Origin: an uncultured Nitrospiraceae bacterium
Lineage (GTDB): Bacteria; Nitrospirota; Nitrospiria; Nitrospirales; Nitrospiraceae
DNA length: 64,000 nt
Assembly (NCBI GenBank): GCA_963730935.1
Contig: CAVSTP010000002.1
Coordinates: forward strand, 320,001 to 384,000
Direction: 5' to 3'
The position numbers were made by a program, and so were the translations under genes. The notes under the pieces were generated by a model, which was given only the letters and a program-made list of their open reading frames with translations, had not been told where the DNA came from and did no database searches. Below, in pieces: positions 8,377 to 35,642 of the stretch. Every line of letters begins with the position of its first letter. Position 1 is the stretch's first letter.

Positions 8377-8403
8377 GGTAAACAGCCTCGTGGATCCGAT
8401 CCA

Positions 8404-13349: not shown

Positions 13350-13378
13350 AAGTGTCACCTTCACTACTTTCTTAATGG

Positions 13379-16705: not shown

Positions 16706-16740
16706 CCGTATAAAGATCTGCTTTATGTGGTTCGAGTGTT

Positions 16741-16772
16741 TGGAGCCGGCGACCGATTCGAATCAGCGACCT
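16741..16772 (-). other. degenerate tRNA 3'-end fragment (att-like scar)
   Basis: reverse complement AGGTCGCTGATTCGAATCGGTCGCCGGCTCCA: T-loop, acceptor 3' strand and CCA, no 5' half. Confidence 0.6.
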
Positions 16773-19864: not shown

Positions 19865-19900
19865 TATTATCCTCCTCGGTGGGGGACGGCATGGCGTATT

Positions 19901-20149
19901 CTAGGTCCAGACGACTCGTTCTCGATTCAGGAGGTACTCAATCACCTCCATGCTGTCGCGCATTTGAGTTCGAGCGCCCTCGGACATAGGAATGACAGCG
20001 CCATAAATTCTGCCAGGCTCGATTTCGTCGAGTGAGGGGATACCTCCAGGTCCTCGGCGTTCGCCCTCTTCTTTATGACTTGCCACGTCTTGATCTCCCT
20101 TGTTAAACCGTCTATTCCGAAGCATATGACTGGGATACTGCTTAGTCAC
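19901..20149 (-). CDS. hypothetical protein
   Basis: 82-aa ORF co-oriented with 19592-19864. Confidence 0.4.
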   Translation of the reverse strand: MTKQYPSHMLRNRRFNKGDQDVASHKEEGERRGPGGIPSLDEIEPGRIYGAVIPMSEGARTQMRDSMEVIEYLLNRERVVWT

Positions 20150-20509
20150 GTCATATCCAAGTTATTGACAACAGTTTTTTGTTTATCTGAATCCTTTTCG
20201 GCGAGTGGGAAACAAGGGTTCAGTTCCGGACCTTTAGACTCTGCACACCTGCAAATCGTGTGGTATCTGGTATAAGGAGTTAAAAACCAGCGAGGTCAGC
20301 CCTTCTGTGGTGTTTTCTCCTGAGGCGTGGTCTTTTTACGACTCTATTCGTGGCAAGAACGACATACCCAGCTTCGAAAATTGTGTAGTCCTTCGCTTCG
20401 TACGCTCGCGTTATGAGCATTTCCCGTTTCAGACCATTCGTGGTACTGTGTTTGCTACGTAGTTACCTTACTTTCCTTATTCTTAATTCTTATATCCAGA
20501 GAGGCGCTA

Positions 20510-20710
20510 ATGTATCAGTTCCAAAGAGAGGACACCGCATTGCAGGCAGCAAGGCTTCTGGCAGTGTACGAGAGAGCACCAATTCTAGTGATGGCCCGCG
20601 GTATGAGGGCGCTGTATACCATCGGTCCTCTAAACAATCCAGCCGTTCATAAGGCCGGTCAACATATGGCTACGGTTTATCGTTCTGGGCGTGTCGACTA
20701 TATGGGGTGA
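20510..20710 (+). CDS. hypothetical small protein
   Basis: 66 aa, RBS AGAGG. Confidence 0.45.
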   Translation: MYQFQREDTALQAARLLAVYERAPILVMARGMRALYTIGPLNNPAVHKAGQHMATVYRSGRVDYMG

Positions 20711-21044
20711 ACGTGATGTCCCCTCCCTTGGTGCTCTCACAAGTGGAAGAGCCACAGATGCTAAAAATTCGCTGGAAGTCCTAAACCAAGTCCGCAGCGA
20801 TATCATCAGAGACGAACCCTGGAACTAGGGTCAGCGCTACCAGCGTTTAGCCTGGTGTGGGTCGAGGGATTGTTTTCTAACAACTGTCTGGACGATCTGA
20901 TTAAGAGAACGATTTTACCCCGCCGCTTCGAATCGCGCTGAAGCAAGAGAGCTAGGGCCTAGCCCAGTTTCGGCAACCTGCTTTTCCCGCTACTGCTATG
21001 AATCTGTAGTATCACTCCCTTTCGCGCGTATCCAAAACAAGAAA

Positions 21045-21856
21045 ATGGAGGGATTTATGGCGCAACCTTTTCTAGGGGGACTTGCCTTACTATTGTCGGT
21101 CATAGTGTTTATGTCCGTTGCTGATGCCGCCTCTGAGCGAGCCGGGACTGATACACAGCTGCTTTCCGGGGATCGGGTTCTTCTCGGTACGGTAGAGGAA
21201 GTGAGAAGTGATCAGGCCAGAATCAATACCGGGGAAGGGCAGCCGCGGTTCGTTCCGATGAACGTGCGAAAGGATAAGGGATTGTTGGACTTGAAAAAGG
21301 GAGATCAGGTTGAGATCACCGTCAATGACCAGAATCTGCTCGTGGATGTACATAAGGTTGGAGAGTCAAGCCACCATCGTGTTATTCAAGGTCAACTTGC
21401 CGAGCCCTTGGACACCGGGCACGATAAGGCGGTGATTCGTACAAGGAAGGGAAGAAGAGTCTCACCTGTGCGACCGGTCGCACGAGTAAGGTGGCCTCGA
21501 TTCCCGTCGGGGCAGATGTCACCTTTCTCATTGACGAGTTGGATAAGATCGTCGATGTGACAATGGGGACTACCGAATCCATTCATCGATCGGCGGAACT
21601 CGGGCAACAGAAATCGCCCCTCAAGGGTAACCTGAGCCAGATCGCAGGTGTCATTGTCACGCCCTTAAAGAACAATACCATTGTCATTCGCACCGAGGAT
21701 GGCAAGGAGCACGCGTATGAAGCGCGCCCGCTCATTCAGGAGAGACTTGCCCAGTTATCCCGAGGCCAATCCGCCACGTTGTTAGTGGACGCCGAGCAAC
21801 AAGTAGCGGACGTGTCCTTTAACCAGGCGGAAAAAAGTAAACCCAGGCAGAGATGA
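21045..21856 (+). pseudogene. exported OB-fold-repeat-like protein split by frameshift(s) near 21440-21495
   Basis: signal peptide in 21045-21560; 21491-21856 continues the same repeat pattern in another frame. Confidence 0.65.
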
Positions 21857-21921
21857 AAATGCACTGCCGGAAATTTGATCACCATGACAGAATTTCTCCC
21901 GCTTGAAATCAGGAGGCACAC

Positions 21922-22395
21922 ATGCGCAAGCAAATCATTGGCGAAAAACAGGAGAAAACCGCATCTGCTGAGCAGGATTGGTTGAACGTGGAGGGACTGG
22001 CAGAGGTGGAAATCACCTCAGAGGACGCCGCTCATCCCATTGAGTCGGCGTTGCTGCCTGGTCAGAATTCGGGGTGGCGGGCCGCAGAGGCCGGGAAGCA
22101 GACGATCCGACTCCTCTTTAACCATCCGCAACGGCTGCGGCGGATCTGGATGAATTTCGTGGAGCCCCAAACTGAACGCACCCAAGAGTACGTCTTGCGT
22201 TGGTCGCCGGATAGCGGGCAGTCCTTCCGTGAAATTGTTCGGCAGCAGTGGAACTTCAGTCCCCCAAGCACCACGAACGAGACCGAAGATCATCATGTCG
22301 AACTCCCGGCGGTCACGATGCTCGAGTTGAGCATCATTCCAGACATCAGCGGAGGGAATGCGCTCGCGTCGTTGGCGCAGCTGCGGCTTGCCTAA
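21922..22395 (+). CDS. discoidin/galactose-binding-fold protein (paralog of 12873-13349)
   Basis: aligns end-to-end with the 12873 ORF; RBS AGGAGG. Confidence 0.8.
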   Translation: MRKQIIGEKQEKTASAEQDWLNVEGLAEVEITSEDAAHPIESALLPGQNSGWRAAEAGKQTIRLLFNHPQRLRRIWMNFVEPQTERTQEYVLRWSPDSGQSFREIVRQQWNFSPPSTTNETEDHHVELPAVTMLELSIIPDISGGNALASLAQLRLA

Positions 22396-22621
22396 CTTCC
22401 CCAAGTTCGTTAGGTCGCCGTCGTAGTAATGCAAGATTCTACTCTCACCAAGTTTTATGCGGCCACGCAAAACCTGCGTCCATGACGGGTTTAGCCAGCT
22501 CGTGAGCTAGCTGTTACCGTTACGTTAGGCAAGGCAGTGAGTTTTTCAGAGGCGTTGTTTGACAAGCTGTTCAGAATGTGCGGATAGATTGCCACTGCCG
22601 GCATGGTATGACATAAGCATA

Positions 22622-22927
22622 ATGTCTATGAGTCGTACTAATCTGGACCCTCTGATCACCTTCCCTGATGGCTCGCATCTGCTCATTAGTACCCAATGTT
22701 CCAAACAAGGAGAGTTTTCCTGTGCTCTCTACACGGCCATCATTGCACCTGATGATAGTGCCTCTTTTCAGATGGTCTCAAGTCACCTCGAAGCATCAAC
22801 GTGTCTCAGTGCTCAAGAACATGCCTACGATCATGCCGTCCAACTCTTCCCGCGTGCAGTTGAACGAATGAAAAAGCCACCTTACCTGATATGGCAGGGT
22901 CCCCCCCCTAATACATGTTTATTCTAG
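22622..22927 (+). CDS. hypothetical protein
   Basis: about 100 aa, globular composition. Confidence 0.55.
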   Translation: MSMSRTNLDPLITFPDGSHLLISTQCSKQGEFSCALYTAIIAPDDSASFQMVSSHLEASTCLSAQEHAYDHAVQLFPRAVERMKKPPYLIWQGPPPNTCLF

Positions 22928-23397
22928 TTTTTCTCCGGACACGAAGGGCAGCATCGGCCTAACAGCACACTCGAGGCCACCATGGAAAAAGGTCCGGCAA
23001 ATAATAGTTGCATCGGGCTCACCAGCTTCCGACGCTAGCGACCTCTTCCCAGCGTATCTACTACGATCCTTCGTATCTTTTTCAATCCGATTCCCGGGAT
23101 TCATTAGCGACTCGTGCAGTGCCACGCGTCTCCCTAATCGACCCCTTTAAGTCTTTGATATAGCTAGTCTCCCAGCTTCTTGTTCATTGAAATATTTTAT
23201 CTATCCGATTGGTCCAGCAGTTGCTCATATGTCGTTCAACATGGGTAATGGAAATGAAGCCATGAGAAGTATCCTCGATTATGTGCTCGTCCTGACAGTG
23301 CGATTAGGTGCAGGCTCTACGCTCGTGATGTTGAAGAATCTCTGGCCCTAGGAAGAGAGCGTGAAAATAGATTCCCGCTTCTCCGAAGGAGGTTGCG

Positions 23398-23766
23398 ATG
23401 AAACACGTTATGGCAGTCATCATAGGGTGTAATCTAGTTGTCTCTGCTTTCGTGGTTGTAGATTCGGACGCCTGGAGCGGCTGTACTATTGAGCAGCGGA
23501 TTGAACTAGGCAATCAGGGATATGGGAGGGATGAGGTGGAAAAGGCCTGCAGTCAAAGCGGGAATGGTTTCTGGAAGAATGGTCTTACAGATGCCTTGGA
23601 CAAAGCATTAGGAGGAAGCGGAAATAGCTATGCTTCATCGGCCACTCACGGTGCGAGTATGTGCAGTACGAATTACGGGAGCTGCCCCCTGTCAGGAGGG
23701 CCTATGGGCTATCCCTGCTATTGTCCCGGATGGAATGGTTACACAATCACGGGCATCTCAAAATAA
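23398..23766 (+). CDS. secreted Cys-rich hypothetical protein
   Basis: RBS AAGGAGG, signal-like N-terminus, C-x-T-x-x-G-x-C...G-x-P-C-x-C. Confidence 0.7.
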   Translation: MKHVMAVIIGCNLVVSAFVVVDSDAWSGCTIEQRIELGNQGYGRDEVEKACSQSGNGFWKNGLTDALDKALGGSGNSYASSATHGASMCSTNYGSCPLSGGPMGYPCYCPGWNGYTITGISK

Positions 23767-24048
23767 ATCTACTCCAGACTGGGGCTTCCAAGTCAGCTAT
23801 CCGCCCGCATGGGCGGCAGGGTACACACTCGAAAAAGACCCGCTGTTATTCCGGCATGCTGTAGTCCGCGTGTCTTGCAGTAATGGAGTCGAACCGTTTT
23901 CATAAACAGCAATTCGCCAGTCTGGCTAGGCGTGGGAGTCCTCATGAGGCCAGCCGCCCTGCCTGAACATGGCCGGGGGGCCTCTTCTCCCAGGTTGGAA
24001 GGAATAATTTTCAGTTTGTCGTCAGGCCGGCCCGGCACACCGCGTCGA

Positions 24049-24070
24049 ACACGGACAACGCACGGACACC
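24049..24070 (+). repeat. putative integrase arm-type sites, left
   Basis: aCACGGACAacgCACGGACAcc; matches 35487-35509. Confidence 0.65.
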
Positions 24071-24261
24071 AGGCCAGCGCACCGTTACTTTCTATAGGGT
24101 TGTGAAGGCACGTTGGGTCTAGAACCTACCGTTCCTACCGCAGACAAAAGAAGGATGAGTTTCTGAAGGACCATATTCGGCATCGGCCTGACTATCTGAA
24201 AGGATGGCGGGCATTGATGAGGGATTAGTAGTCGAGTGCGGGGATGAATTAGCGGACTAAC

Positions 24262-24678
24262 CTATTTGCTGCGCGTTGATGGACGTTCCATGCGGCCACG
24301 AATGGCTTCTAAGTCTGAGGTCAGTTTCTGAAGATTCACAGCGATAATTTTACTATGCTCTGCATCATCCATGTAATGTTGACGCATCTCGTGGGTAAAG
24401 GCATCAAGCTTCGTAGTCACACTATCCAACTTGTCATAAATACGTTTGACGCGCTCCTCGTCTGTCGAATCAACTTTCTGAACTTGTGTTCCCATTTCCT
24501 TAATTGCATCTTCAGCTTGAACCACGCGGGCGCCTAGGTTCCCAACATAAACTGCGCCTACAATGACGCCTCCAATTATGGTCACAACAAGTGCTAAGGC
24601 TACTGCATGATCAGTAATGAACCACCATAGCTGACGCATGGATTCGTCTCGTGCCATTAATCCACCTCCCAGAAACAA
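24262..24678 (-). CDS. membrane-anchored coiled-coil hypothetical protein
   Basis: one TM helix followed by a heptad-like region. Confidence 0.6.
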   Translation of the reverse strand: MFLGGGLMARDESMRQLWWFITDHAVALALVVTIIGGVIVGAVYVGNLGARVVQAEDAIKEMGTQVQKVDSTDEERVKRIYDKLDSVTTKLDAFTHEMRQHYMDDAEHSKIIAVNLQKLTSDLEAIRGRMERPSTRSK

Positions 24679-24739
24679 CCTCCCAGATTATACCCCCCTT
24701 CCTTACCACTATCCAAAAGGAATACACGAGGGAAACTCA

Positions 24740-25975
24740 CTACCGGATCTTCACAAGATTGGATTTGGCCGACAGAGAGGCAAGATAGTCGCAAGTGCGC
24801 TTCATGGCCTGGCGGAGATCCTCTTCGGAGATGATGTTGTATCGGGAGAAGATTGAGGGGGTGCGATGGCCGGAAATCTGTCGAGCCACGTCAGGGTTGA
24901 CGCCTGCCCGTACCATATTACGGACAGCAGATCGTCGGCAGTCATGGGGGATGGGATACACTTCCACGGTGTGTCCGGTCACTGGGTGACGTTCGACCTT
25001 CACGAGACCGGCCGCACGACACGCACGCTTCCAGACTTTTCTGAACGTCCCCATCTGCTCCCCTCTCCGATGGAAGATATATTGGCAATCCATCTGCCTC
25101 GCGGCCAGCCGTCGCTCAATAACCTCTCGCAAGTCATTCTCCAAGGGGATCGCTCTCCCCTTCCGGTTCTTTGAATCCCTGGCGTGAAGGCGAATGGTCC
25201 AGGTTTCTCGATCGAAGTCAGCCCAGGTCAGCGCCTTCGTTTCGCCCGTTCGCATGCCGGTGAAAAAGCACCAGGCCATGTAGTCTTGGAGGTCACTGTC
25301 GGGCTTTCCACGAACGGTGAGCCGTGACAGAATTGCTTCGAAGTCTGCCCTATCCAAAAAACCCTGCCTAGCATTATCTTCCGGCAAGCTCTTGATGTAA
25401 GGCACATAGGTCAGGACCTGCTGTTCCTTGGCAAGTGTAAAGGCTCGCTGGAGGCCTTCCAGTTCCCGGTTGATCGTGGCATTCGCGGCCTGTTGCTCTT
25501 GCCGTCGCTCCATATAAGCGTTGATCCGATGTGGCGTCACCTCGAGCACTCGATCGTTCCCGAAGAACGCGCGAATGTGTTTCAAATGCTGTTGCAGGCG
25601 GGAGAGTGATGCCAGACCCCGCAATTCATAATGACGTTCCAGTTCCTCCAGCAGACATAGCACGGTGATCCGTTCTTGCTGTGGCCCGCGAAATGGTTGG
25701 ACGCCAAGCCGATGAGCTGCCAGCTCGTCTTGACGCCGTTTCAGCAGTTTTCTTGCCTCCAGTTCGGTAGCTCCCGCTGACTCACGCACTTCAACGCTTC
25801 GCCCATCCCGCTTCACATAGTAGGCAATCCAATACCGTTGCTTGCGCTGGTAGATCCGTCCTGCTCCATGTGGACGCTTCTTTCGTGGTCGTGATTCACT
25901 GGTGACCAGAGAATCGACTAACGCCTGGTGGGATGGCCAATGCTCATTCACGGTGATTGATTGAGTTCCCCTCAT
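24740..25975 (-). CDS. tyrosine recombinase / phage integrase
   Basis: GMRTGE (R), SKN (K), PHDCRR (HxxR), SGH, RYN (Y) all present; SAM-like ATINREL. Confidence 0.95.
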   Translation of the reverse strand: MRGTQSITVNEHWPSHQALVDSLVTSESRPRKKRPHGAGRIYQRKQRYWIAYYVKRDGRSVEVRESAGATELEARKLLKRRQDELAAHRLGVQPFRGPQQERITVLCLLEELERHYELRGLASLSRLQQHLKHIRAFFGNDRVLEVTPHRINAYMERRQEQQAANATINRELEGLQRAFTLAKEQQVLTYVPYIKSLPEDNARQGFLDRADFEAILSRLTVRGKPDSDLQDYMAWCFFTGMRTGETKALTWADFDRETWTIRLHARDSKNRKGRAIPLENDLREVIERRLAARQMDCQYIFHRRGEQMGTFRKVWKRACRAAGLVKVERHPVTGHTVEVYPIPHDCRRSAVRNMVRAGVNPDVARQISGHRTPSIFSRYNIISEEDLRQAMKRTCDYLASLSAKSNLVKIR

Positions 25976-26027
25976 GCATGTGTGATAGTTAACGATATCA
26001 TGCTATCTTAACTATACTCAAGAGGGA

Positions 26028-26345
26028 CTAGTGGCCTTGGTGCCTTCTGATGTACAGCTCAAGCCCATTGTTCGAAAACCTGACATACCTGCCCTGGCGG
26101 ATCATGAAGGGATAGGACCGTGCGTTCCGATAGATAAATCCCTTCGTCACATTAAGCCGAATAGCAACTTCGTCAGCGGTCAGCAGGCGGTCAGGCTGCG
26201 CTTGTACGTTTTTCCCTGTTCCTATGGTCATCTTGAGCCATAACGAGGCTTTCAGCTGCTCCAGGTGTCCCATGAGGAGGGGGCACTGATCAGGGGTGGC
26301 TCTTTCAACGGCTTCCGCTAGGACGCTCCACGTGTCTAGACTCAT
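26028..26345 (-). CDS. excisionase-like HTH_17 protein
   Basis: DRLLTADEVAIRLNVTKGFIYRN...GRYVRFS; directly upstream of int. Confidence 0.8.
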   Translation of the reverse strand: MSLDTWSVLAEAVERATPDQCPLLMGHLEQLKASLWLKMTIGTGKNVQAQPDRLLTADEVAIRLNVTKGFIYRNARSYPFMIRQGRYVRFSNNGLELYIRRHQGH

Positions 26346-26378
26346 CTCTCTTCGTTCTGGCTTCAGCGAGCCAGCCTT

Positions 26379-26621
26379 TCAACGCTCCACAACCACCACC
26401 ACGCGGTTATCTTCGTTATTTTCACGCATCTCAGTGGGTATCAGCCTGGCCGCAATGCGGTAGAACTCCGTTGGATTCTCTTTGGCCCATTTTGAAAAGG
26501 CTTCATGCCCACCGATGTCATCGTAGACGTGCTGAACAGCCTCACGGAAAGCAGTGGTCAGCCGGTTTGGCACGCCGGGCAGTCTTCCGCCTGTTTTTGG
26601 TTTGCCTGGTAGGAATGGCAT
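26379..26621 (-). CDS. terminase-small-subunit-like protein
   Basis: F..G.PKTGGR.PG.PN..T...REA...GG....W A.ENP..FY...RLIP pattern typical of phage TerS-like proteins; RBS AAGGAG. Confidence 0.6.
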   Translation of the reverse strand: MPFLPGKPKTGGRLPGVPNRLTTAFREAVQHVYDDIGGHEAFSKWAKENPTEFYRIAARLIPTEMRENNEDNRVVVVVER

Positions 26622-26650
26622 TCTGTTTCGCTCCTTTTTAGAAATTAGAC

Positions 26651-27058
26651 TTAGTTACCGAGCCCATCCAGGCCATGTTCCCTGACTGTCCACGCGGCCA
26701 GGAGCCGGCCCTTTTCGTTGGTTTGACCCACCGCACGAATGCTTGAAAGGGAAAGGTGTGCTCCATCGGTCAGGACAAGACGCCAGCCTGACCCGTGCCA
26801 CTGGCATTCCTTCACGGTGCCATGCTCCCGTTCGTCTGCGCCGCCCCGAAGTTTGTCGGTCCTGTCGCGATAGACCACAAACCAGCCAGACTCGAGCGGG
26901 GGAATGCGAGCAGGTTCCGAGGGTGGCTGGTCCTCTTCTGAATCCGCTGGAGCATCTGTCGGAACCAGCGGAAGGGGTGCCTTACAGACTAGACAGGCCG
27001 CCCAGTGGACGTTGACCACGGCGTGACACTGAAGGCATCGGCTGACCGTCAGGCTCAT
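26651..27058 (-). CDS. hypothetical protein with N-terminal Zn-ribbon (CxxC-x9-CxxC)
   Basis: likely start MSLTVSRCLQC at 27058; the upstream extension in the ORF track overlaps the iteron array. Confidence 0.65.
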   Translation of the reverse strand: MSLTVSRCLQCHAVVNVHWAACLVCKAPLPLVPTDAPADSEEDQPPSEPARIPPLESGWFVVYRDRTDKLRGGADEREHGTVKECQWHGSGWRLVLTDGAHLSLSSIRAVGQTNEKGRLLAAWTVREHGLDGLGN

Positions 27059-27086
27059 ACAGTCCGCCTTTTTCGCATAACCTGAC

Positions 27087-27272
27087 AGGAAACATTGAGG
27101 CAACTTCCATGTTGCCTGCTCTGGAAAGAGTTTCCAGGTAGGCAACTCGTACACCCCGCATCTGGAGCAGCGTTCCGCCGAAAGTTTCCTAAATTCCCCC
27201 CGCGATTTCGCAGGAGCAAAATAGGCAACATTTTCACGCGGGAGGCAACTTTTGAGGCAACCATTAGGCAAC
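27087..27272. repeat. iteron array, putative replication origin
   Basis: AGGCAAC at 27098, 27140, 27223, 27243, 27255 and 27266; inverted at 27111; AGGAAAC variants at 27087 and (inverted) 27184. Confidence 0.75.
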
Positions 27273-28310
27273 CCCTTCCAGTGCCGCCTTGAGTTTCTTG
27301 ATGATTCTTGAGGCGTAGCCGGGGGAGATATCGAGCTCTATGGCGAGGTCGGACGGCCTAGTCACGCCGTTCTCAAACAGCTCTCTCGCCAGTTCAAACT
27401 TCGAAACTTCCACCGGCTGGTATTGCCAGATGAGTCCGTGACCTTGCTTCACCAAGCGCACATCGAGTGGGGCCACATCATCGCCCGTCACGCCCCGGCA
27501 TTTCGTGAAGTGCATTTCAAAGTGGCATCCGTCGCGGGCATCCCTCAAAGGCGGTTCCTTGAGTTGCACCACGGTGTCTAGCGCATCCTCCCGGCCGCTA
27601 GTGCCACGTTGCTGCCCCTTTTTACCGGAGTGGTGGACTAAGACAGTGGAGAGCCCCCGATGACGCAGGCGGATCAGCCACGCGTTGATCGGCTCCCAAT
27701 CCTGCTTGCTGTCTTCATTGATTCCGCTAAAAAGACAGGAAATATTGTCGAGGATCAGGACGCGGATGTCTGGGCGGGCCTCGAGGATTTTGACAATCTG
27801 TTGTTGCATGCCGTGCGACGTGAGGATGAGATCCTTCCCACCGCATCGCTGATACACCAGTTGACTGGTAAGGAATTCAAACGGGGCGGCTGGCGGCGTA
27901 TCCATGAGCGCCGTGGCGCGTTCTCGGAGTTCGTCCAGCTGCATCTCGCCATCGCAGTACAGCACTCCGACAGGCGCTTGGACCTTCCACTTCAGAAGAT
28001 CCTTGCCGTTGGTCAGGGAGACGCCTAAGGCCAGTTGGAGAAAGGTCTTGCCAATCCCCCGTGGGCCAAAGACCATCACGTTGCCGCCTTCAGGAAGCCA
28101 TGGGAGATGACGGGCTCGCTCTGGAATCTGCAGCGCCATCAGATCGGTATAGTTCACCAGCGCCCGTAAGAGATCGGGGGGCGTCCGATCCTCACTCAAT
28201 CTGTTCGCCGTGCCGTCCCCGGCCAGCATCTGTTCTATGCCTGTGGAAAGCCGCTCCTGCGCTTCATCAAAGGCAGTCGCGGCTTGGGTAAATGCAGCCT
28301 CACTAGTCAT
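27264..28310 (-). CDS. AAA_25 / RepA-like (SF4) helicase with C-terminal HTH
   Basis: Walker A GPRGIGKT, YCDGEM, Walker B LILDN, VHHSGK...RGTS; ATGA overlap with the upstream gene. Confidence 0.85.
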   Translation of the reverse strand: MTSEAAFTQAATAFDEAQERLSTGIEQMLAGDGTANRLSEDRTPPDLLRALVNYTDLMALQIPERARHLPWLPEGGNVMVFGPRGIGKTFLQLALGVSLTNGKDLLKWKVQAPVGVLYCDGEMQLDELRERATALMDTPPAAPFEFLTSQLVYQRCGGKDLILTSHGMQQQIVKILEARPDIRVLILDNISCLFSGINEDSKQDWEPINAWLIRLRHRGLSTVLVHHSGKKGQQRGTSGREDALDTVVQLKEPPLRDARDGCHFEMHFTKCRGVTGDDVAPLDVRLVKQGHGLIWQYQPVEVSKFELARELFENGVTRPSDLAIELDISPGYASRIIKKLKAALEGVA

Positions 28311-28759
28311 ATCGCCTCGCTTTCCAGGAGCTGATAGGCGGCCCCCAAACGCTCTAGGGCGGTGTTGAGTTGTTCGTGAGACCACTTGTCAATGCAGATG
28401 CCGCACGCGGAGTGAATGAATGCTTCTGCTTCTCGCAGAGCATCCATGCGGAGACCATTTGCTGTGTAGGTGGCCTGCTCCTTTGTCTTAGCTTGCTGGC
28501 GTGCTTCCATCGCCTGACGGCGTTCGTTAGGGTTGTTTCCCGTCGTGTCAAAGAACAGATCCTTGACCGAGAGACCCAACGCCCTGGTAATCTCTTCCAC
28601 CGTGCAACCGGCCCAGCACTTCAGCAGCAGGCCCCGGTTGCCTTCAGCTATCGTGAGTGATGGTGAGTTGTCTTGATGTGCGGGGCAGCGGCTAATCCAT
28701 TTGTTCGAGCCGCTAGAGCGTACCCCATCGAGCAGCGGCAGCAGTTCTGTGGCCATCAT
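28307..28759 (-). CDS. CHC2 primase-type zinc-finger protein (no TOPRIM domain)
   Basis: RCPAHQDNSPSL...LLKCWAGC. Confidence 0.85.
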   Translation of the reverse strand: MMATELLPLLDGVRSSGSNKWISRCPAHQDNSPSLTIAEGNRGLLLKCWAGCTVEEITRALGLSVKDLFFDTTGNNPNERRQAMEARQQAKTKEQATYTANGLRMDALREAEAFIHSACGICIDKWSHEQLNTALERLGAAYQLLESEAI

Positions 28760-28872
28760 GCCACGCTCACAGTCTGGCGAACGTCTAGTGCATCATGGAG
28801 TTGACCGTGTGCTCGGTGGCAGTCCCGGAATCGCTCTTGTAACGCTAACCGGTAATCAGGTAGGCTTTGCAT
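28756..28872 (-). CDS. 38-aa ORF translationally coupled to the Zn-finger gene
   Basis: MQSLPDYRLAL...VSVA*; ATGA overlap at 28756-28759. Confidence 0.3.
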   Translation of the reverse strand: MQSLPDYRLALQERFRDCHRAHGQLHDALDVRQTVSVA

Positions 28873-28897
28873 CGTTCACCCTATACAGTTTGTGTTG

Positions 28898-28933
28898 AGC
28901 CGCCGTGGAGGTCGCACTCCCGGCGGCTTTTTT
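28898..28933 (+). terminator. intrinsic-terminator-like hairpin oriented antisense to the replication operon
   Basis: AGCCGCCG-TGGAG...CTCC-CGGCGGCT followed by TTTTT. Confidence 0.55.
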
Positions 28934-28945
28934 GTTCATCGGGAT

Positions 28946-29173
28946 TCACTTCACCACCTTGTTCTGCTCCGCTCGGGTTTGTACTTGGCGTCGTAACGCC
29001 GCCTTCGCTTCTTCAATATCCACTCGCACTCCGTACCCTTTATTGCCAGCGGCATAGGCCGGTACTCTCCCGTTCTTGCAGAGCCGATAGAGGCTCGAAG
29101 GAGCCATGCCTAATTGGCGTGCCGCCTGTTTGACACTGACCAATGCACCGCTTGTTTGGTTGTCGTCGCTCAT
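28946..29173 (-). CDS. AlpA/excisionase-like HTH protein
   Basis: LVSVKQAARQLGMAPSSLYRLCKNGRVPA; RBS AAGGAG before ATG 29173. Confidence 0.8.
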   Translation of the reverse strand: MSDDNQTSGALVSVKQAARQLGMAPSSLYRLCKNGRVPAYAAGNKGYGVRVDIEEAKAALRRQVQTRAEQNKVVK

Positions 29174-29420
29174 GTATCTCCTTCCATGTTGCTCAGGTTG
29201 TTCCCCTATGGAACAACAATGCCTATTTATCCCTATCGTATGAAAAAGAGCGAAGAGAGCAGGCATGAGATGTCTCAGAGGCGGTTCTAAGACCTTGGAT
29301 TTAAATGTTAATTCGTGAACTGGAGACCGAGAAGCTTAAGGCAAGTGTAGATAGGGACGGAAAAGGCCTCTTTATATCCCCATTGAAAACTATGAGAATT
29401 TCCGCCGGTGGGCTAAGGCA

Positions 29421-30170
29421 TTATGTGTGAGAGTTCGCGGAGGGAGGTTGGAGAGAATCGAAAAATTTTTTGAATGCACGAAGGGTGGCCTCGTCCGGCT
29501 GCTGTGAGGGATTAGCTAGGAAGCACTGAAGGACGTTTATATACTTATTTATCAAACCACTGAAATCTTCGAGGTCCGTCTCTCCCGGTGTGACTGATGC
29601 TGCGATTTCATCAATATGTTTCAGGTGCTTTTCCCACTTCCGGTATTGTCTGAGCATGGTATCTGCATTTGGAGGCTTGATGCCGTAACAATTAGTGGTC
29701 CATAAACTTGAACTAGTATCGCCATCTTTACGGAACAGCGCTTTCACTTGTTTGGCGACTTGTCTGCAAGCCTCCGTCTTTGACAGTCCCCCAATCACGA
29801 GCTTGTGGACTGCCTGGCATAAAACCTCCAGCATGTTCTTCCGCACTCTTTGAGGGACCTCGGCGGCTTTCGTCTTCCCTGTCCCTTCCCCCTTGAAGCC
29901 TAAGGCAATATCTAGCGACTTAATGTCCGGCGATGTGATGCGGTCGTTTGTCGCCGCCTTAAATAATTTGACGGCCCACATGGGGGCGGCAATGCCGAGA
30001 AGTCCCGCGCTTACCATTGCTGACGTTGCCAAAAAGGGGGTCTTCGGCTCGGTGTAATGGCATTCGTACAAGCTCAGGATTGCCTCTCGGCGCCAAGGTT
30101 CCGCTTCCCCCTCAAGCTGCTCATCGAGAAACGCTAGAAAAGGATCTGTTGTCTGTGGATTTGTGGACAT
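29421..30170 (-). CDS. hypothetical protein (possible element regulator)
   Basis: 249 aa, SD AGGAGG, helical C-terminal part (GLSKTEACRQVA). Confidence 0.7.
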   Translation of the reverse strand: MSTNPQTTDPFLAFLDEQLEGEAEPWRREAILSLYECHYTEPKTPFLATSAMVSAGLLGIAAPMWAVKLFKAATNDRITSPDIKSLDIALGFKGEGTGKTKAAEVPQRVRKNMLEVLCQAVHKLVIGGLSKTEACRQVAKQVKALFRKDGDTSSSLWTTNCYGIKPPNADTMLRQYRKWEKHLKHIDEIAASVTPGETDLEDFSGLINKYINVLQCFLANPSQQPDEATLRAFKKFFDSLQPPSANSHT

Positions 30171-30199
30171 GTCCCCTCCTGTCGGGTCCTGGTGAGGAG

Positions 30200-30261
30200 G
30201 GGCAGCGCCCGCGCCAGGAAACGCGAGCCGGCCAGGGGATCAAGCCCGACCGTTGCTGCCC
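30200..30261 (-). ncRNA. three-way-junction RNA, c4/CI-like antisense or leader switch candidate
   Basis: P1 GGGCAGC/GCTGCCC, P2 CGGTCGGG/CCTGGCCG, P3 GCTCGCG/CGCGGGC; segments complementary to sequence beside the downstream SD. Confidence 0.6.
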
Positions 30262-30362
30262 GAGGAGAATCATTTCACGCCGCGCACGTCAAGTGCGTGG
30301 CTAATCATGTCTACCTCAAGCGTTGTATAATCGCAACGCAAGGAACGCTCCAGAAGGAACAG

Positions 30363-30596
30363 ATGGGGAAAGGCGACAAAGGGAAACAGAAGTTCATGAT
30401 GGGCTTCCGGCCAGTCGTGCGAGCCCGTGAGGGCCGCATGCTTGGCATCCGTCAGCCACTAGACGGACCCATCTTCGAAACGATGAGAGATGCTGAGAAC
30501 TGGTGCATCCATGCCATGATCAGTCACTTCGATAGACGGCTTGGCATGTCGGATGCGACGATTGAACCGTTCAAAGGGATGGTGCTTTGTTTCTGA
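30363..30596 (+). CDS. small hypothetical protein (MGKGDKG family), intact copy
   Basis: RBS AAGGA before ATG 30363; homologous segments at 32369 and 34223. Confidence 0.7.
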   Translation: MGKGDKGKQKFMMGFRPVVRAREGRMLGIRQPLDGPIFETMRDAENWCIHAMISHFDRRLGMSDATIEPFKGMVLCF

Positions 30597-31066
30597 AGGA
30601 CGTCTAAGCACTGCAGCCGTTTTCCACGTGCTTATTTACCATTCCGAAGCCTGACTAGAGGTTCGGATTCTCATTCTGAATCGTTATGCATCAATTGCGA
30701 CCCTGCTTTTTCGGACTGGTTCTCATCACAATAGCCCGATGTTCCGGAGGGGAGGAGGGCAATCAAGGAAATCCTGGAGCGACGGTGTCATTGATGTGGG
30801 ATCCAGTTATTGATGCATTGCCGATCAGCTATACGGTGCATTATGGTAAGGAATCGCCTCGCAATGTCGGATCATGCAAGTACGAGTATTCTTTGAGCAC
30901 GTCCGAACCCTTTGCCACCATCACCGATCTTGAATTTGATGCGATCTACTACTTTGCCGTCAGTGCCTTCAACGGACTTCGCGGCCCTTGTTCCAACGAG
31001 CTAGTAAAAGTGACCGGAAAACCAGGACAGGACACACCACAAAGCCAATAACAACACTGTTCGGCT
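30394..31066 (+). repeat. 673-bp direct repeat, copy 1 (copy 2 at 34223-34895)
   Basis: offset 3829 bp; two substitutions seen near the 3' end. Confidence 0.95.
30686..31051 (+). CDS. fibronectin type III domain (lipo)protein, copy 1
   Basis: VSLMWDP...YTVHYG...ITDL....YYFAVSAFNG...SNE. Confidence 0.8.
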   Translation: MHQLRPCFFGLVLITIARCSGGEEGNQGNPGATVSLMWDPVIDALPISYTVHYGKESPRNVGSCKYEYSLSTSEPFATITDLEFDAIYYFAVSAFNGLRGPCSNELVKVTGKPGQDTPQSQ

Positions 31067-31436
31067 AGCACCCTAGTCAGTTGACCGAGTTGCAAAGGAC
31101 ACGGGTAGCCAGTAGCGACGCGAAACCAGGTACAGACGACGAGTAACTACACCCACAATATCCTCCCTAAATCTTCATCTAGCTTACGCGGACGGCAGCA
31201 ATCATGAAAATCCGTCCCCTATGGCGTCCTGTTCTTCAAGAAACAGATCCAAGTTCTCCATCACAACATCCCACCACGTGCCCCCATCTCCGAAGCAATC
31301 CGCTCAATGTGCGCTTTCAGTCGGTCGTCCCACTCGTGCGTCCACTTCCTGATGATGAGTTCTTGAATAGCTAGCTCGGATTCTGCTACTCGATTCATGT
31401 TTTCAACAGGGAACGTGAATCAATCTATTTCCATCT

Positions 31437-32021
31437 TTAATACTTATCTGCATGGGAGCCACCACGCACGCACCAGACATGCCTTGTCCCCGTCTTTCCC
31501 GAATCCCCAGTGGTGCCATCAAAGAAGCGAACTTCCCATGCTTGTGTCGGAATGAACGCTTGTCGGACATCGGTCGTGGATGACCAGTAGGCCGACTCGA
31601 AAAGTCCTCCGGTTTGGACATTTTGAAAGGGATGACCAGGAGGAAGAGCTGGTCCGGGGGCTGGGACGGTCGAATCAACCAAACTCGCCAACTCTTCAAT
31701 TAATGGAAGATGCCAGCCCATTCGACCTCCAACTTGTCGCAGCCAGCAGGTTCTGACCGCATCCTCCCATGAACGCGAATTTGTTTCTGGCGACTTTTCC
31801 CACACTAGCCCTGTCTCACGGTCCAACACTGCGGCATTTCCAAAATCTGGCAAGACAACAAATCGCCTGTTGGCGTTCACGATGATGTTGCTCCAAGATT
31901 TTAAGTGCGGCTGCGTCGCTGGATCGAGAGGATCGGAACCGAATGCTCCCAGAGGATTCAGAATGACTAGAATAGCGCCCATCGCGAATGGACTAAATGC
32001 ACGGATAAAGTTCTTTGTCAT
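31437..32021 (-). CDS. DUF1566 (Lcl C-terminal-like) exported protein
   Basis: VLDRETGLVWEK...W.DA...C...GWHLP.IEELASL...YWSSTT...WCVR. Confidence 0.85.
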   Translation of the reverse strand: MTKNFIRAFSPFAMGAILVILNPLGAFGSDPLDPATQPHLKSWSNIIVNANRRFVVLPDFGNAAVLDRETGLVWEKSPETNSRSWEDAVRTCWLRQVGGRMGWHLPLIEELASLVDSTVPAPGPALPPGHPFQNVQTGGLFESAYWSSTTDVRQAFIPTQAWEVRFFDGTTGDSGKTGTRHVWCVRGGSHADKY

Positions 32022-32368
32022 GATGTCCTCCAGTGGGAATGACTTTCATGAGCGGACCTTGGATTGGCTGCAAAAGCCAAGAGGCGCCTCTATAGCATTA
32101 ACAGAGCTTGGAAGGCTAGGATTCTTTATGGTGGAATAATTACGTGTATTTTTGGCAGTAGAGTCTTATTTGCCAGTTTCCTTTTGTTGAATCGAAGCTA
32201 TGATCGAAGTTATGCTTGATAGGCTGCTGCAGACAAGGATTCTCATCACTTTAACGGCTCGCCTTGATGCGTTGATCGCGGATCAAGGGTGGCTGTTGGA
32301 AGTCATCCGTAATAAACAGCCTGAGGCAGTTCGGATGGGGGAAGCACCTCGGCTAAGGAGAGAGACTG

Positions 32369-32524
32369 ATGGGGAAAGGCGATAAAGGCACACAAACCTT
32401 CATGGTTGGCTATCGCCCTTCCGTGTATGCCCGCGAAGGCCGCATGCTGGGGATCAGGCAACCCTTGGATGGACCAATCTTTGACACAGAACGAGATGCC
32501 GAGCACAATCGACCATCCCTCTGA
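32369..32524 (+). pseudogene. diverged, 3'-truncated MGKGDKG-family copy
   Basis: MGKGDKGTQTFMVGYRPSVYAREGRMLGIRQPLDGPIFDTERDAE, then homology ends; RBS AAGGAG. Confidence 0.75.
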
Positions 32525-32559
32525 ATGGCTCAATGTGAAGGAAGACAAGTAAGAAAGGA

Positions 32560-32712
32560 ATGGACCTTTTATTTCTCGAGGCCGCTGCTGCTTTCTCCAA
32601 GCATGCTGTGGTCTTGTTGGGCACGGGTACAGTCATTGCCGGCTACCGTGCATATCGTTTCGCTCTTCGGCGGGTCTTTGTGAACCTTGAGTCGACGCCA
32701 CTCAAAGCCTAG
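32560..32712 (+). CDS. 50-aa small membrane protein
   Basis: AAAGGA upstream; one hydrophobic stretch. Confidence 0.35.
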   Translation: MDLLFLEAAAAFSKHAVVLLGTGTVIAGYRAYRFALRRVFVNLESTPLKA

Positions 32713-32764
32713 TTTCATTGCACATGGGAGTCCCTATAGATGTGTGTAGGATTGTTGTTGTCTT

Positions 32765-33502
32765 CTACCGACCTGGAAACACCACCATTGATTCGCTCGG
32801 GACGACAATAGTGTCACCTGACTGCAACTCAAAGTTTTCATTGATTCCGGAGCGAAGCACAATTTCATCGTAACTAGCTGTCAACCGCTTCATGCCAGGC
32901 GCACTTTCCGTGAACCGGAAGATGACGATTTGATTTCTGGCAGCGGTCGGGTTGAATCCTCCGGCTATCGTAATACTCTGTAACAATGTCGTTCTGCTCT
33001 TGAGGGGAAATTTGCCGGAAGTTTTCACTTCCCCAAGCACAAAAAAATTCGAGCTATTGACCTCTTTCAAGCTTACTGCGACGACAGGATTTTGCACGTA
33101 CTCCTTCAGCTTAATGGTCATTTCTTCAGCTAATTGCGTGGGCGTTTTTCCAACAGCGACGATGTCACGAATGATCGGCAGGGACGCTCGCCCATCCGGA
33201 CGAACTTGGACGACCTTGGACAGGTCTGGATTTCTCCATACCGTGATGTCCAGCATATCTTCTGCTCCGATGATGTACTCGCTGCTGACGGCGTTTGAGA
33301 GTTTTTCCATCACTTGCGCAGGAAGACTGGCATCCTTGTTTATCGGAAAGGTTTTTTCGTTAGACGCAGAAGATGGCGCATCAGCCGGCGTTTTAGCTGG
33401 ACTGACTGCGACCATGGGGGCAGACTCTGAAAATCCAACACTCGGAGCCCAGATCACCGAGAGCAACACCATTAATACGAATAATGCGCGTGCCATAAAC
33501 AT
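32765..33502 (-). CDS. polysaccharide biosynthesis/export family protein (Poly_export + SLBB)
   Basis: YIIGAEDMLDITVW...VRPDGRASLP...VLGEV...AGGF...LQSGDTIVVP. Confidence 0.9.
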   Translation of the reverse strand: MFMARALFVLMVLLSVIWAPSVGFSESAPMVAVSPAKTPADAPSSASNEKTFPINKDASLPAQVMEKLSNAVSSEYIIGAEDMLDITVWRNPDLSKVVQVRPDGRASLPIIRDIVAVGKTPTQLAEEMTIKLKEYVQNPVVAVSLKEVNSSNFFVLGEVKTSGKFPLKSRTTLLQSITIAGGFNPTAARNQIVIFRFTESAPGMKRLTASYDEIVLRSGINENFELQSGDTIVVPSESMVVFPGR

Positions 33503-33888
33503 TCGCCCTCCTGTCTTTGCAGCAACCCCTGTTTGAGAATGCTGCGTATCTCAGTCGCTGACAAATGTGCGTACCGGCTCATCACGCCTGACAAAGCTCC
33601 AACTCGCTCGTTATGAACAAGCCGACAGAGATGACAGACAAGAAGAGGGTTCAAGTTAGAATAAGGTTCGCAGACTAACCCGTCAATGACCAGTCTTTCA
33701 TTGCTCACGTTCAAGAAGGGCTAGCAAAGACCCTTGATTGCGATTACTCAAAGCCTAGATCCACTAGGATGGCTGAAATGGGCCACCATCCCAACGTAGA
33801 ACAAGTAGCCTGCCTCTGGTATGGTCGAGATTCCATCCGAGTCGTCACCCCGAGTCGTCACCTTTTAGTTTTTAAACTTGGGTCACCT

Positions 33889-34222
33889 ATGAATTATTTA
33901 GAAGGTTCTGTTTGGAGGAAATGGGACTTACATGTGCACACGCCGGCGTCAATCGGCCACCACTACAGTATTGAGGCGAAGATCCATGGCACACTTTCAT
34001 AGACCAGTTAGAACAACTACCGGCCGACATCAAGGTTCTCGGAGTAAACGATTATATTTTTATAGATGGCTATAAAAGACTGCGCCAGGAAAAGGCACAG
34101 GGAAGAATCCCTAATATAGATCTTCTATTGCCTGTCATAGAACTGAGACTGGATAAATTTGGAGGATCACCAGGTCATCTAAGCCGAGTGAACTATCATG
34201 TCATTTTCTCAGACGACGTTGC
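33889..34222 (+). pseudogene. N-terminal PHP domain of a TrlF/Ppl-like PHP-ATPase, frameshifted and truncated
   Basis: GSVWRKWDLHVHTP, then in another frame VLGVNDYIFIDGY...PVIELRL...VNYHVIFSD; cut at repeat copy 2. Confidence 0.75.
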
Positions 34223-34895
34223 TCATGATGGGCTTCCGGCCAGTCGTGCGAGCCCGTGAGGGCCGCATGCTTGGCATCCGTCAGCCACTAGACGGACCCA
34301 TCTTCGAAACGATGAGAGATGCTGAGAACTGGTGCATCCATGCCATGATCAGTCACTTCGATAGACGGCTTGGCATGTCGGATGCGACGATTGAACCGTT
34401 CAAAGGGATGGTGCTTTGTTTCTGAAGGACGTCTAAGCACTGCAGCCGTTTTCCACGTGCTTATTTACCATTCCGAAGCCTGACTAGAGGTTCGGATTCT
34501 CATTCTGAATCGTTATGCATCAATTGCGACCCTGCTTTTTCGGACTGGTTCTCATCACAATAGCCCGATGTTCCGGAGGGGAGGAGGGCAATCAAGGAAA
34601 TCCTGGAGCGACGGTGTCATTGATGTGGGATCCAGTTATTGATGCATTGCCGATCAGCTATACGGTGCATTATGGTAAGGAATCGCCTCGCAATGTCGGA
34701 TCATGCAAGTACGAGTATTCTTTGAGCACGTCCGAACCCTTTGCCACCATCACCGATCTTGAATTTGATGCGATCTACTACTTTGCCGTCAGTGCCTTCA
34801 ACGGACTTCGCGGCCCTTGTTCCAACGAGCTAGTAAAAGTGACCGGAAAACCGGGACAGAACACACCACAAAGCCAATAACAACACTGTTCGGCT
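34223..34895 (+). repeat. 673-bp direct repeat, copy 2
   Basis: see copy 1. Confidence 0.95.
34515..34880 (+). CDS. fibronectin type III domain (lipo)protein, copy 2
   Basis: identical to copy 1 except one D->N. Confidence 0.8.
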   Translation: MHQLRPCFFGLVLITIARCSGGEEGNQGNPGATVSLMWDPVIDALPISYTVHYGKESPRNVGSCKYEYSLSTSEPFATITDLEFDAIYYFAVSAFNGLRGPCSNELVKVTGKPGQNTPQSQ

Positions 34896-34993
34896 GTTCC
34901 GCTGTGTGCCGCTGCGTTCCGCCGTGTTTTCCACATATCATATGCTGTCAAGTGCTAGTACCTATCGAGGACACCGTGCTATGCTCCCGCGCC

Positions 34994-35182
34994 ATGGCAA
35001 AAAAGACAGAAGTTGAAAAGGGGGGGGCCTGGATCTTCCGAGACATCCCCCGCGATCTGATGAAGCGCGCAAAGATCGCCGCCGCTGTCGAGGGCAAAAC
35101 GATTAAGGCGCTGGTGCTCGAGGCGCTTGAAGGAAAGATCCAGGAACTCGAGAAGAAGGGATTACTTCCCAAAGGTAAGTAA
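34994..35182 (+). CDS. ribbon-helix-helix DNA-binding protein
   Basis: WIFRDIPRDLMKRAKIAAAVEGKTIKALVLEAL; TATGCT just upstream of the ATG. Confidence 0.75.
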   Translation: MAKKTEVEKGGAWIFRDIPRDLMKRAKIAAAVEGKTIKALVLEALEGKIQELEKKGLLPKGK

Positions 35183-35184
35183 GA

Positions 35185-35385
35185 ATGACCACGCAGCCCC
35201 GTCCCACAATCAACTATCCAAAGAACTGCGGACATCAGGCCTGTACGTGTCAGGCACGGGAACATAGCTCGTTTTGTAGTGATGCCTGCGAGCAGGCCTC
35301 ACCGCCTCTCCCAGGAGCCACCTGCCCGTGCGAGCATCCTGGCTGTGAGAAGTCATCTGTCGCTGAAAGCAGCGGATTCGGCTGA
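35185..35385 (+). CDS. bacterial metallothionein-like protein
   Basis: CGHQACTC...FCSDAC...CPCEHPGC. Confidence 0.7.
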   Translation: MTTQPRPTINYPKNCGHQACTCQAREHSSFCSDACEQASPPLPGATCPCEHPGCEKSSVAESSGFG

Positions 35386-35486
35386 CTTCTCGTCGTTAAA
35401 CCCTCATCGTTTACCAATCACGGCCACCCTTATTTCGCTTAATTCGTTAAATTCGCCAATGGGCTTGGAAAGTTGTGTGCTCATAG

Positions 35487-35561
35487 ACACGGACACTTTC
35501 ACGGACACCGGAACCATTTTTCGCGGTTCCGGGCAGTCTTGGAAGATGGAAGTGATTGATT
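35487..35561 (+). promoter_or_regulatory. att-arm region: CACGGACA pair, hairpin and IHF-like site
   Basis: aCACGGACActttCACGGACAcc; CCGGAACC/GGTTCCGG hairpin; gAAgtgaTTGATT is one mismatch from the IHF consensus. Confidence 0.55.
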
Positions 35562-35565
35562 TAAT

Positions 35566-35642
35566 TGGTGCGCCCGGCAGGAATTGAACCTGCGACCTGC
35601 GGGTTCGAAGCCCGACGCTCTATCCAACTGAGCTACGGGCGC
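35566..35642 (-). tRNA. tRNA-Arg (anticodon TCG)
   Basis: GCGCCCG TAGCTCAGTTGGATAGAGC...CT-TCG-AA...GGTTCAATTCC...CGGGCGC A CCA. Confidence 0.95.

Follow-up and report, generated by a model that had tools for sequence, protein, structure and literature searches.

What is the compact run of co-oriented genes that lies near a tRNA-Arg(TCG) gene in an uncultured Nitrospiraceae bacterium, and how might it spread? The run belongs to contig CAVSTP010000002.1 (C2) of assembly GCA_963730935.1, a genome of 4.05 Mb (G000), and was analysed within a stretch of 64,000 nt (C2:320,001-384,000), hereafter the window; plain coordinates below are window positions. A preliminary description had regarded it as a helper-dependent phage satellite, perhaps of an undescribed family. 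Our results support this reading in part. With a probability of roughly two in three, the element represents a satellite resembling the phage-inducible chromosomal islands (PICIs). Such an element would excise from the chromosome, replicate from a repeat array recognised by the helix-turn-helix (HTH) domain of its own helicase, and be packaged by redirecting the large terminase subunit (TerL) of a helper phage.

A probable small terminase gene without its partner

The case for hijacked packaging centres on an 80-residue open reading frame (ORF) close to the end of the run. It has 168 homologues of similar length and matches one unnamed PHROG; no match to Terminase_2 or to any named PHROG was found. 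In IMG/VR, nine loci contain a relative, about seven of them independent (L014 is related to L019, and L017 to L018). TerL is encoded directly downstream in eight of the nine; in the remaining one it lies no more than about 3 kb away. This context supports the assignment of the ORF to a family of small terminase subunits (TerS), as its original label, "TerS-like", had anticipated. Of 371 Nitrospiraceae genomes, 23 contain the same family. For 17 of the 23 non-self matches we examined the genomic context, and in all 17 neither TerL nor portal was detected near the TerS gene by tblastn and PHROGs, the positive controls being matched (the TerL test was redone with PHROGs after the Pfam scan had missed the TerL control, L223). 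Most of these contexts are small elements linked to tRNAs. A co-oriented integrase gene follows the TerS gene in 13 of the 17, and five of the 17 are bounded by attachment (att) sites at 5.9-11.9 kb.

Moreover, the gene is found with quite different replication modules. Four helicase types accompany this TerS family: DUF3631, DUF3987 (carried by two Nitrospiraceae relatives), AAA_25 and a primase-fused type. The slot is itself variable in relatives of the element's helicase, where it may hold Terminase_2 (L228), a TerS of a third type (L007, L227) or an HTH protein, or have no recognisable occupant; one viral relative of the L227/L007 type matches the TerS family phrog_2538 and stands upstream of TerL. 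It is because an orphan TerS is kept across swapped replicons that we favour packaging hijack, and this is our main argument. The presence of different TerS families in one slot, and of one TerS family with four helicase types, fits selection for a packaging-related role.

The structural model of the 80-residue protein (predicted local distance difference test, 71.7; predicted template-modelling score, 0.41) had no Foldseek match among viral structures at E<=0.001, and the best VIA-align Z was 3.2. A four-copy complex prediction gave a median of 0.24 against a mark of 0.42 and was used neither for nor against the assignment. A weak TerL-like match in the host genome was rejected, as it corresponds to PhoH.

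A conserved gene order in compact islands

The genes form a single unbroken minus-strand run from 30170 to 24740, in agreement with the preliminary description, with Pfam and PHROG matches along it and all core ORFs intact. From 5' to 3' it comprises a 249-residue ORF, an HTH_17 protein, a CHC2-like protein, the AAA_25 helicase, the repeat array, a zinc ribbon protein, the TerS gene, a Xis-like protein and an integrase (Table 1). The zinc-finger, helicase, origin-crossing and zinc-ribbon genes have start and stop codons overlapping in succession. GC content is 54% in the core, 51% in the adjoining cargo and 57.5% in the genome. Most of the gene assignments proposed from the letters alone proved sound: the AlpA/Xis-like HTH protein, AAA_25, the zinc ribbon (a weak match), Xis, the iterons right after the helicase gene, and the integrase with its complete catalytic set (R242, K269, H344, R347, H370, Y379). 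For the AlpA-like gene HTH_17 scored above the cut-off (E 4e-7 to 8e-7) and phrog_66 also matched; PF05930 was not among the matches listed. In the case of the CHC2-like gene the zinc finger was confirmed but not the primase: it encodes the zinc-finger piece alone, lacking the catalytic domain, and the same stand-alone form is present in at least 12 relatives. The name "regulator-like" for the 249-residue ORF found no support. Pfam and PHROG scans assigned it to no family, ESM Atlas returned only unnamed clusters (as it did for the zinc-ribbon ORF), and its single homologue (35%) sits in the same slot of L021.

Homologues of the helicase were sought widely. A profile detected them in 12 of the 371 family genomes; a single-query search returned nothing in the 60 nearest relatives. 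At least 567 metagenome stretches matched, of which the best 80 were kept, and phage and plasmid collections gave partial matches only. The close helicase relatives are assigned to Nitrospira or Nitrospiraceae, and the synteny comparison called for earlier revealed that they keep a common order: ORF, AlpA-like gene, primase part, helicase, array, zinc ribbon, variable slot. Among the 16 helicase loci with a visible integrase, that gene comes last, in the same orientation as the others, in 12 (the window, L004, L005, L006, L007, L020, L022, L023, L025, L028, L226 and L227) and first in L009, L010, L040 and L228. The integrase-last order is thus the majority arrangement. The reported position of the integrase distal from the tRNA is a trait of this copy and not of the relatives: each of the ten integrase-last relatives whose tRNA is intact and visible (Gly, Arg-CCT, Leu, Pro, Thr) has its integrase no more than about 1.6 kb from that tRNA.

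These relatives are also compact. Nine helicase relatives are att-bounded at 6.8-10.0 kb, and at least 14 relatives, located at different tRNAs, are complete from att to att with a length of 5.9-11.9 kb. Across the nine (96 ORFs of at least 120 residues, scanned or identified by tblastn), no capsid, portal, tail or lysis gene was found, TerS-type genes aside; capsid and tail genes, the expected mark of decayed prophages, did not turn up in them. Likewise, the ORFs scanned from window positions 1-35565 had no match to capsid, portal, tail, lysis or conjugation families, as claimed at the outset, nor to holin or head-tail genes. P4 satellites encode Sid, Psu, Delta, Ash and an alpha-type primase-helicase; no Pfam or PHROG match to P4-like genes was obtained among the core ORFs. 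Small recurring tRNA islands with TerS and without TerL therefore uphold the idea of a helper-dependent satellite of a Nitrospiraceae family, whereas its novelty had been overstated, in view of the PICI-like features considered below.

The primase part is interchangeable: relatives have a zinc finger only, Toprim, Prim-Pol, an NrS-1-like protein, DUF3854 or a DnaB N-terminal domain. The last is fused to the AAA_25 helicase, in place of a primase, in two relatives (L226:12247-13620 and L297:9018-10691). The DnaB N-terminus binds DnaG, and the fusion suggests that host primase may be recruited.

A helicase with its own putative origin

The predicted fold of the helicase is a RecA-type ATPase, with KaiC, RadA and RecA as the top Foldseek matches, and its C-terminal three-helix domain is modelled confidently. 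The array lies 3' of the helicase gene and consists of repeats in mixed orientation, spaced by 11-12-20-40-43-11-19-12-11, which matches the family layout; near-11-bp phasing is conserved over 26 close loci. It is the sole site in the genome with six GTTGCC within 250 bp. More broadly, of 172 helicase loci, 19 with less than 250 nt downstream were dropped, and 101 of the remaining 153 have a repeat of at least six copies, beyond shuffles. Where the TerS family occurs with other helicases, a strong repeat array is mostly lacking after the stop (3-7 copies). The helicase module is found far outside Nitrospira, 2,129 clusters at 50% identity scoring E<=1e-30, and in 8 of 62 longer array-bearing loci of this wider family a TerL-like match lies nearby.

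An ORF of about 70 codons crosses the array. The same frame is open in 21 of the 26 close loci against 5% of shuffles, a count inflated by kinship. Judging from the overlapping codons, it likely couples translation of the helicase to that of the zinc ribbon.

A helicase residue that tracks a repeat base

A feature that had escaped the preliminary description concerns the C-terminal domain. In all 27 close loci, helicase residue 335 tracks the repeat, which is GTTGCC where the residue is Arg and GTTTCC where it is Lys (the window has R335). Counted by sites, Arg loci have 84 of G-type and 5 of T-type, and Lys loci 5 and 185. In a wider set the rule is kept in 46 of 47 loci with a GTT[GT]C repeat (40 of 41 without near-duplicates), and other helices accompany other repeats. 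The covariation likely shows by what means the helicase identifies the origin that belongs to it.

Could linkage alone, with HTH codons and origin swapped together and no direct recognition by residue 335, produce the same pattern? The codons and the origin lie within 300 bp of each other. On the best ATPase-only tree (built without L032, L037, L038 and L040, which are truncated or frameshifted) the trait changes six times; of the six independent pairs on that tree only one falls on strongly supported branches, and a sign test cannot reach significance. Six residues before position 335, eight of nine Arg loci have an Asn in common, perhaps the trace of a shared converted tract. One wider locus (L177) breaks the rule, and 45 of 92 Arg/Lys helices have repeats beyond the GTT[GT]C class. 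On the other hand, Arg-group monophyly is rejected (approximately unbiased test, p=3.5e-5). The nearest neighbours of masked origins cross Arg/Lys types, the scaffolds are not grouped by type, and the HTH of the window is not nearest to other Arg HTHs. The same rule holds between loci only 36-46% identical, including KSTISK-GTTTCA versus KSTISR-GTTGCA. The helix-repeat partial correlation, 0.24, exceeds the values of all 200 random core-column sets (at most 0.20). For these reasons linkage alone seems an unlikely cause, and direct recognition remains our preferred explanation.

Comparison with known satellites

PICIs have five core components, four of which suffice for type B (main text of PMC10085698). 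Gram-negative PICIs are transcribed unidirectionally, are activated by AlpA without a master repressor and have their origin 3' of rep, as the available text of PMC6092414 describes. Hence two traits first taken as non-canonical, co-orientation and the lack of a divergent repressor, do not set the element apart. Indeed, it shares with these islands (EcCICFT073; type B) an integrase, an AlpA-like HTH protein, a primase-helicase, a putative origin directly 3' of rep and TerS, as well as unidirectional genes, no master repressor, no structural or lysis genes and a size of about 10 kb (the same two sources). In PICI origins two iteron sets flank an AT-rich region; position and mixed orientation agree here, and the AT centre is weak (64%). 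Unlike PICIs, the element has its integrase last, preceded by a second Xis-like HTH protein (four relatives are integrase-first), a RecA-fold AAA_25 helicase, a TerS family without a named profile and no capsid gene. The set that defines capsid-forming PICIs (own capsid, portal, TerL and head-tail genes) was not found in the element. Neither "Nitrospir" nor "AAA_25"/"PF13481" appears in the main text of PMC10085698. The element likely works like a PICI without a capsid gene, yet we do not file it as a canonical PICI because the integrase-first order fails, the helicase class differs and the TerS family is unprofiled.

The replication module resembles that of SaPIs (pathogenicity islands of Staphylococcus aureus). 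According to the available text of PMC9371898, SaPI Reps are self-loading helicases of superfamilies 3 and 6 whose C-terminal winged helix reads iterons 3' of the gene. Common to both systems are a helicase, here with a putative initiator role, that has a C-terminal DNA-binding domain, and 6-12 short repeats immediately downstream; the element differs in the RecA-fold motor, the weakly AT-rich centre (AT-rich in SaPIs) and the coupled ORF across the origin.

In what could be compared from the respective texts, other groups fit less well: EPIPs, PICMIs (phage-inducible chromosomal minimalist islands), tycheposons and AICEs (actinomycete integrative and conjugative elements). PICI-like tycheposons (10.1101/2020.12.28.424599) likewise have a tRNA-specific tyrosine integrase, xis, a swappable primase/helicase, terS and islands accreted in tandem at tRNAs. 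What defines them is a separate integrase clade in Prochlorococcus and marine bacteria; "Nitrosp" is absent from the text of that preprint. PICMIs (available text of PMC10803314) share the minimal set of int, AlpA (PF12728 counts as such there) and primase without capsid, but integrate at fis, use DUF3987/DUF5906 primases and have no terminase mentioned in that text, in contrast to tRNA-Arg and AAA_25 here. AICEs such as pSAM2 and pMEA300 (available text of PMC2440964) are tRNA-integrated, about 10 kb long and, in pMEA elements, have rep followed by xis; the element differs in another class of replication protein, the presence of TerS and the lack of any conjugation or transfer Pfam match among the scanned island ORFs. 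We found no description of phage satellites in Nitrospira, of this family or of the code in the literature, mostly open-access and supplements excluded.

How the element might work, and what else it might be

In the life cycle that we propose, a phage would trigger induction through the AlpA-like gene, and Int and Xis would excise the element from its tRNA site. The C-terminal HTH of the helicase may then bind the repeats directly and self-load the motor at the array, and forms without a primase of their own might use that of the host, a possibility to which the two DnaB N-terminal fusions point. Finally, TerS would redirect the large terminase of the helper phage, so that the element is packaged into helper particles.

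A number of observations weigh against this reading. The TerS protein has no profile, PDB-sequence or fold match, and its assignment comes from context. Several helicase relatives lack a recognisable TerS (e.g. L004, L022, L025, L028). The host genome has no TerL by phrog_2. IMG/VR holds no close helicase relative (best 41% identity), and there is no direct sign of packaging. The origin centre is not strongly AT-rich (at most 64% AT over 25 nt). The nearest integrases (50-76% identity) are found at tRNA-Met and those at 44-49% mostly at tRNA-Lys, not at tRNA-Arg(TCG). Nine tRNA-Arg(TCG) sites of the same family, six with the arm motif, have no integrase homologue over the up to 20-40 kb read. 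Finally, no tRNA-derived core occurs near 24049, where no exact 11-14 nt tRNA match lies nearby.

The family may well be a satellite, and this copy nevertheless be grounded, its right att core gone and the genes caught inside an accreted 47-kb tRNA-Arg island with no compact excision; we regard this as a serious possibility, if one with somewhat worse than even odds. The left end had been placed at 24049, which is not borne out as stated: the arm-type repeats are there, the tRNA core is absent, and a 138-residue ORF separates the arms from the integrase. The att core instead has an identical partner (46/46) at C2:318,368-318,413, 1.6 kb to the left of window position 1, giving an att-bounded unit of 37.2 kb that the preliminary description had missed. 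A third arm pair lies at C2:318,521, and only this pair then has a core, about 100 nt on. The expected layout can be seen in a tRNA-Lys element of the same genome, where an integrase 44% identical is followed by arms, about 120 nt and the core, distal from the intact tRNA. Because of that layout, the arm pair at 24049..24070 likely marks the original right end of the element, and the boundary at 24049 is plausibly that end with its core since lost. With the right-hand core seemingly lost, excision would therefore need the distant core and would carry 37.2 kb. Three further tRNA-Arg remnants lie more to the left, and the related integrases target other tRNAs. Against a grounded copy, none of the core ORFs is broken and they remain coupled, the origin keeps its spacing, and 37.2 kb off there is a perfect 46-bp core accompanied by arms, the integrase being the only PF00589 gene within the interval.

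Several related integrase loci carry the same arm motif, and the arrangement of tRNA-Arg core and arms recurs in 9 other genomes of the 371. Arm repeats are present in the tRNA-Arg(TCG) islands of relatives (L254-L264), and L261 contains a complete 2.7-kb att-to-att cassette without an integrase, suggesting mobilisation in trans. At C2:403,508-403,713, a tRNA-Met is followed by arm repeats and, 12 nt on, by a 36-nt tRNA-Arg remnant. The tRNA-Arg island has at its far end a 1-kb cassette encoding ribbon-helix-helix (RHH) and PilZ proteins, of which copies at 99% are found at C2:403,951 and 412,640. An inversion between the tRNA-Arg and the remnant at C2:403,678 was rejected on paper, since it would not put the integrase back beside tRNA-Met. 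The joint 23983>34902, which appeared in the sequencing runs described below, was not accepted as a boundary; it is weak (37 nt on the short side, in a repeated hairpin), with no shared repeat longer than 9 nt. The hairpin-like repeat, of about 60 nt (23921-23983), has five other genomic copies, one identical over 59 nt, and no Rfam match. As for circular forms, which it had been proposed to look for in reads, all shares in sequencing runs were below 0.15. From four runs compared at 85% likeness came short contigs from soil; some of them are identical to the core and its flanks, and none holds evidence of circularisation.

A less probable alternative is a self-replicating integrative element that dispenses with phage packaging and spreads by vesicles, transformation or passive transduction, as thought for cargo-type tycheposons, TerS being a passenger or an anti-phage interference factor. 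The relatives without TerS, the missing close helicase relatives in viral contigs and the defence-like cargo of relatives (TIR-STAND, Fic, NYN, HicB) would all suit such an element. It is harder to reconcile with different TerS families in the same slot and one TerS family with four helicase types, and we find it unlikely. That the locus is a decayed prophage with its late genes deleted is already largely refuted and highly improbable: every core gene has phage homologues, the helicase family occurs in viral contigs with TerL-like matches near some arrays, and L223 carries TerL, but at least 14 relatives are complete units at different tRNAs, TerS in host genomes is followed by xis-int and not by TerL, and the window core shows no decay.

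Taking the PICI-like satellite as the preferred reading, we put forward a wider proposal more tentatively, as its chances appear slightly short of even. The element would belong to an undescribed Nitrospiraceae family of integrase-last, TerS-hijacking satellites whose AAA_25 members use self-loading RecA-fold initiators, a third helicase class for the SaPI strategy, with an HTH code of Arg-G/Lys-T. Each of the repeated switches in origin specificity would consist of one residue plus conversion of the whole array, and this copy (7 G, 3 T) would have been caught midway. The PICI-like lifestyle itself is already known. If true, the proposal would extend phage satellites to the phylum of key nitrifiers, and detection tools would probably undercount such satellites, this TerS family being missed by standard profiles. 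It would also provide a one-gene replicon with a testable protein-DNA code, and hence a handle on the co-evolution of initiator and iteron array, together with a set of orthogonal origins supplied by nature and perhaps a basis for Nitrospira vectors.

Surroundings of the element and side observations

Table 1. Features of the element and its surroundings (window positions; aa, amino acids)
Feature	Position	Strand	Remarks
tRNA-Arg(TCG)	35566..35642	-	3' 46 nt (35566-35611) form the att core
tRNA-proximal arm-type direct repeats, TGTCCGTG x2	35489..35510	-	about 55 nt from core
Small RHH-like protein	34994..35182	+	weak ParD match; homologues adjoin integrase in several relatives
Cargo region	30394..34895	.	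bracketed by 673-bp direct repeat
Wza-like polysaccharide export protein	32765-33502		within cargo
Lcl-domain protein	31437-32021		within cargo
249-aa ORF, no assigned family	29421..30170	-	slot holds diverse proteins in relatives
AlpA/Xis-like HTH_17 protein	28946..29173	-	likely start 29173 with ribosome-binding site; phrog_66
CHC2-like primase zinc-finger protein	28307..28759	-	phrog_6088 primase N-terminus, 2.7e-13; stop overlaps helicase start
AAA_25 helicase, 348 aa	27264..28310	-	AAA_25 1.2e-25; C-terminal three-helix HTH (about residues 300-344)
Putative origin, 10 phased repeats	27088..27272	.	7 GTTGCC + 3 GTTTCC
69-codon ORF across origin	27055..27264	-	start overlaps helicase stop, stop overlaps zinc-ribbon start
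Zinc-ribbon protein	26651..27058	-	weak double zinc ribbon match; kept directly after origin in relatives
TerS family member, 80 aa	26379..26621	-	assigned from gene context
Xis-like HTH protein	26028..26345	-	phrog_66 5e-6, HTH_17 0.002; homologues precede related integrases
Tyrosine integrase	24740..25975	-	PF00589 4.7e-20, phrog_1 1e-53
138-aa membrane-anchored coiled-coil ORF	24262..24678	-	between integrase and arm repeats
Integrase-proximal arm-type repeat pair	24049..24070	-	no att core behind
Accessory DNA within att-bounded interval	1..24048	.	response regulators, PAS histidine kinases, AsmA/YhdP-like and cupredoxin-like genes

Variable cargo of about 5 kb had been expected between the tRNA and the core, and about 5.4 kb is indeed present. 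The two copies of the repeat that brackets it (30394-31066 and 34223-34895) have two differences and each encode an fn3-like secreted protein; the duplication is either recent or an assembly artefact. Part of it belongs to a family of short ORFs with some ten copies near tRNAs in this genome. Beside the tRNA, a Cys-rich ORF of 66 residues (35185-35385) is metallothionein-like by composition only and has homologues beside two related elements. The extra 25 kb of the 37.2-kb unit encode signalling and envelope proteins, among them stand-alone response regulators and PAS histidine kinases that are densely clustered at 887-19154; no integrase or phage structural match was found in 1..24048. Promoter and terminator counts were at chance level, and the tRNA was the sole Rfam match.

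Among relatives, two small tRNA-linked elements (L223:4673-6184 and L029:5949-7424) carry TerL, with 75% identity between the two, and no capsid gene was noticed in them; the one in L029 has serine recombinases. In L010 (1-14450), two tRNA-Arg(TCT) remnants enclose a 7.4-kb family member and, directly adjoining it, prophage-like genes, one of them for an endolysin; the neighbours are a candidate pair of helper and satellite. Around the TerS slot, L010 has two ORFs of no known function in common with L228. Defence-like cargo of relatives comprises a TIR-STAND-FGE protein (L006:4057-6621), a Fic protein (L226:7399-8613), an AbiEii-type ATPase with a DUF4435 partner (L298:6748-8938), NYN and HicB. 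Beyond the window, at C2:535,520-540,383, a second element at tRNA-Leu(GAG) looks degraded but keeps the order of the window's run: a zinc finger is followed by a fragmented helicase, an ORF, an HTH protein, xis and the integrase. Judged from the shared N-terminus, this integrase resembles in type, at 89-90%, the ones in L290, L294 and L296.

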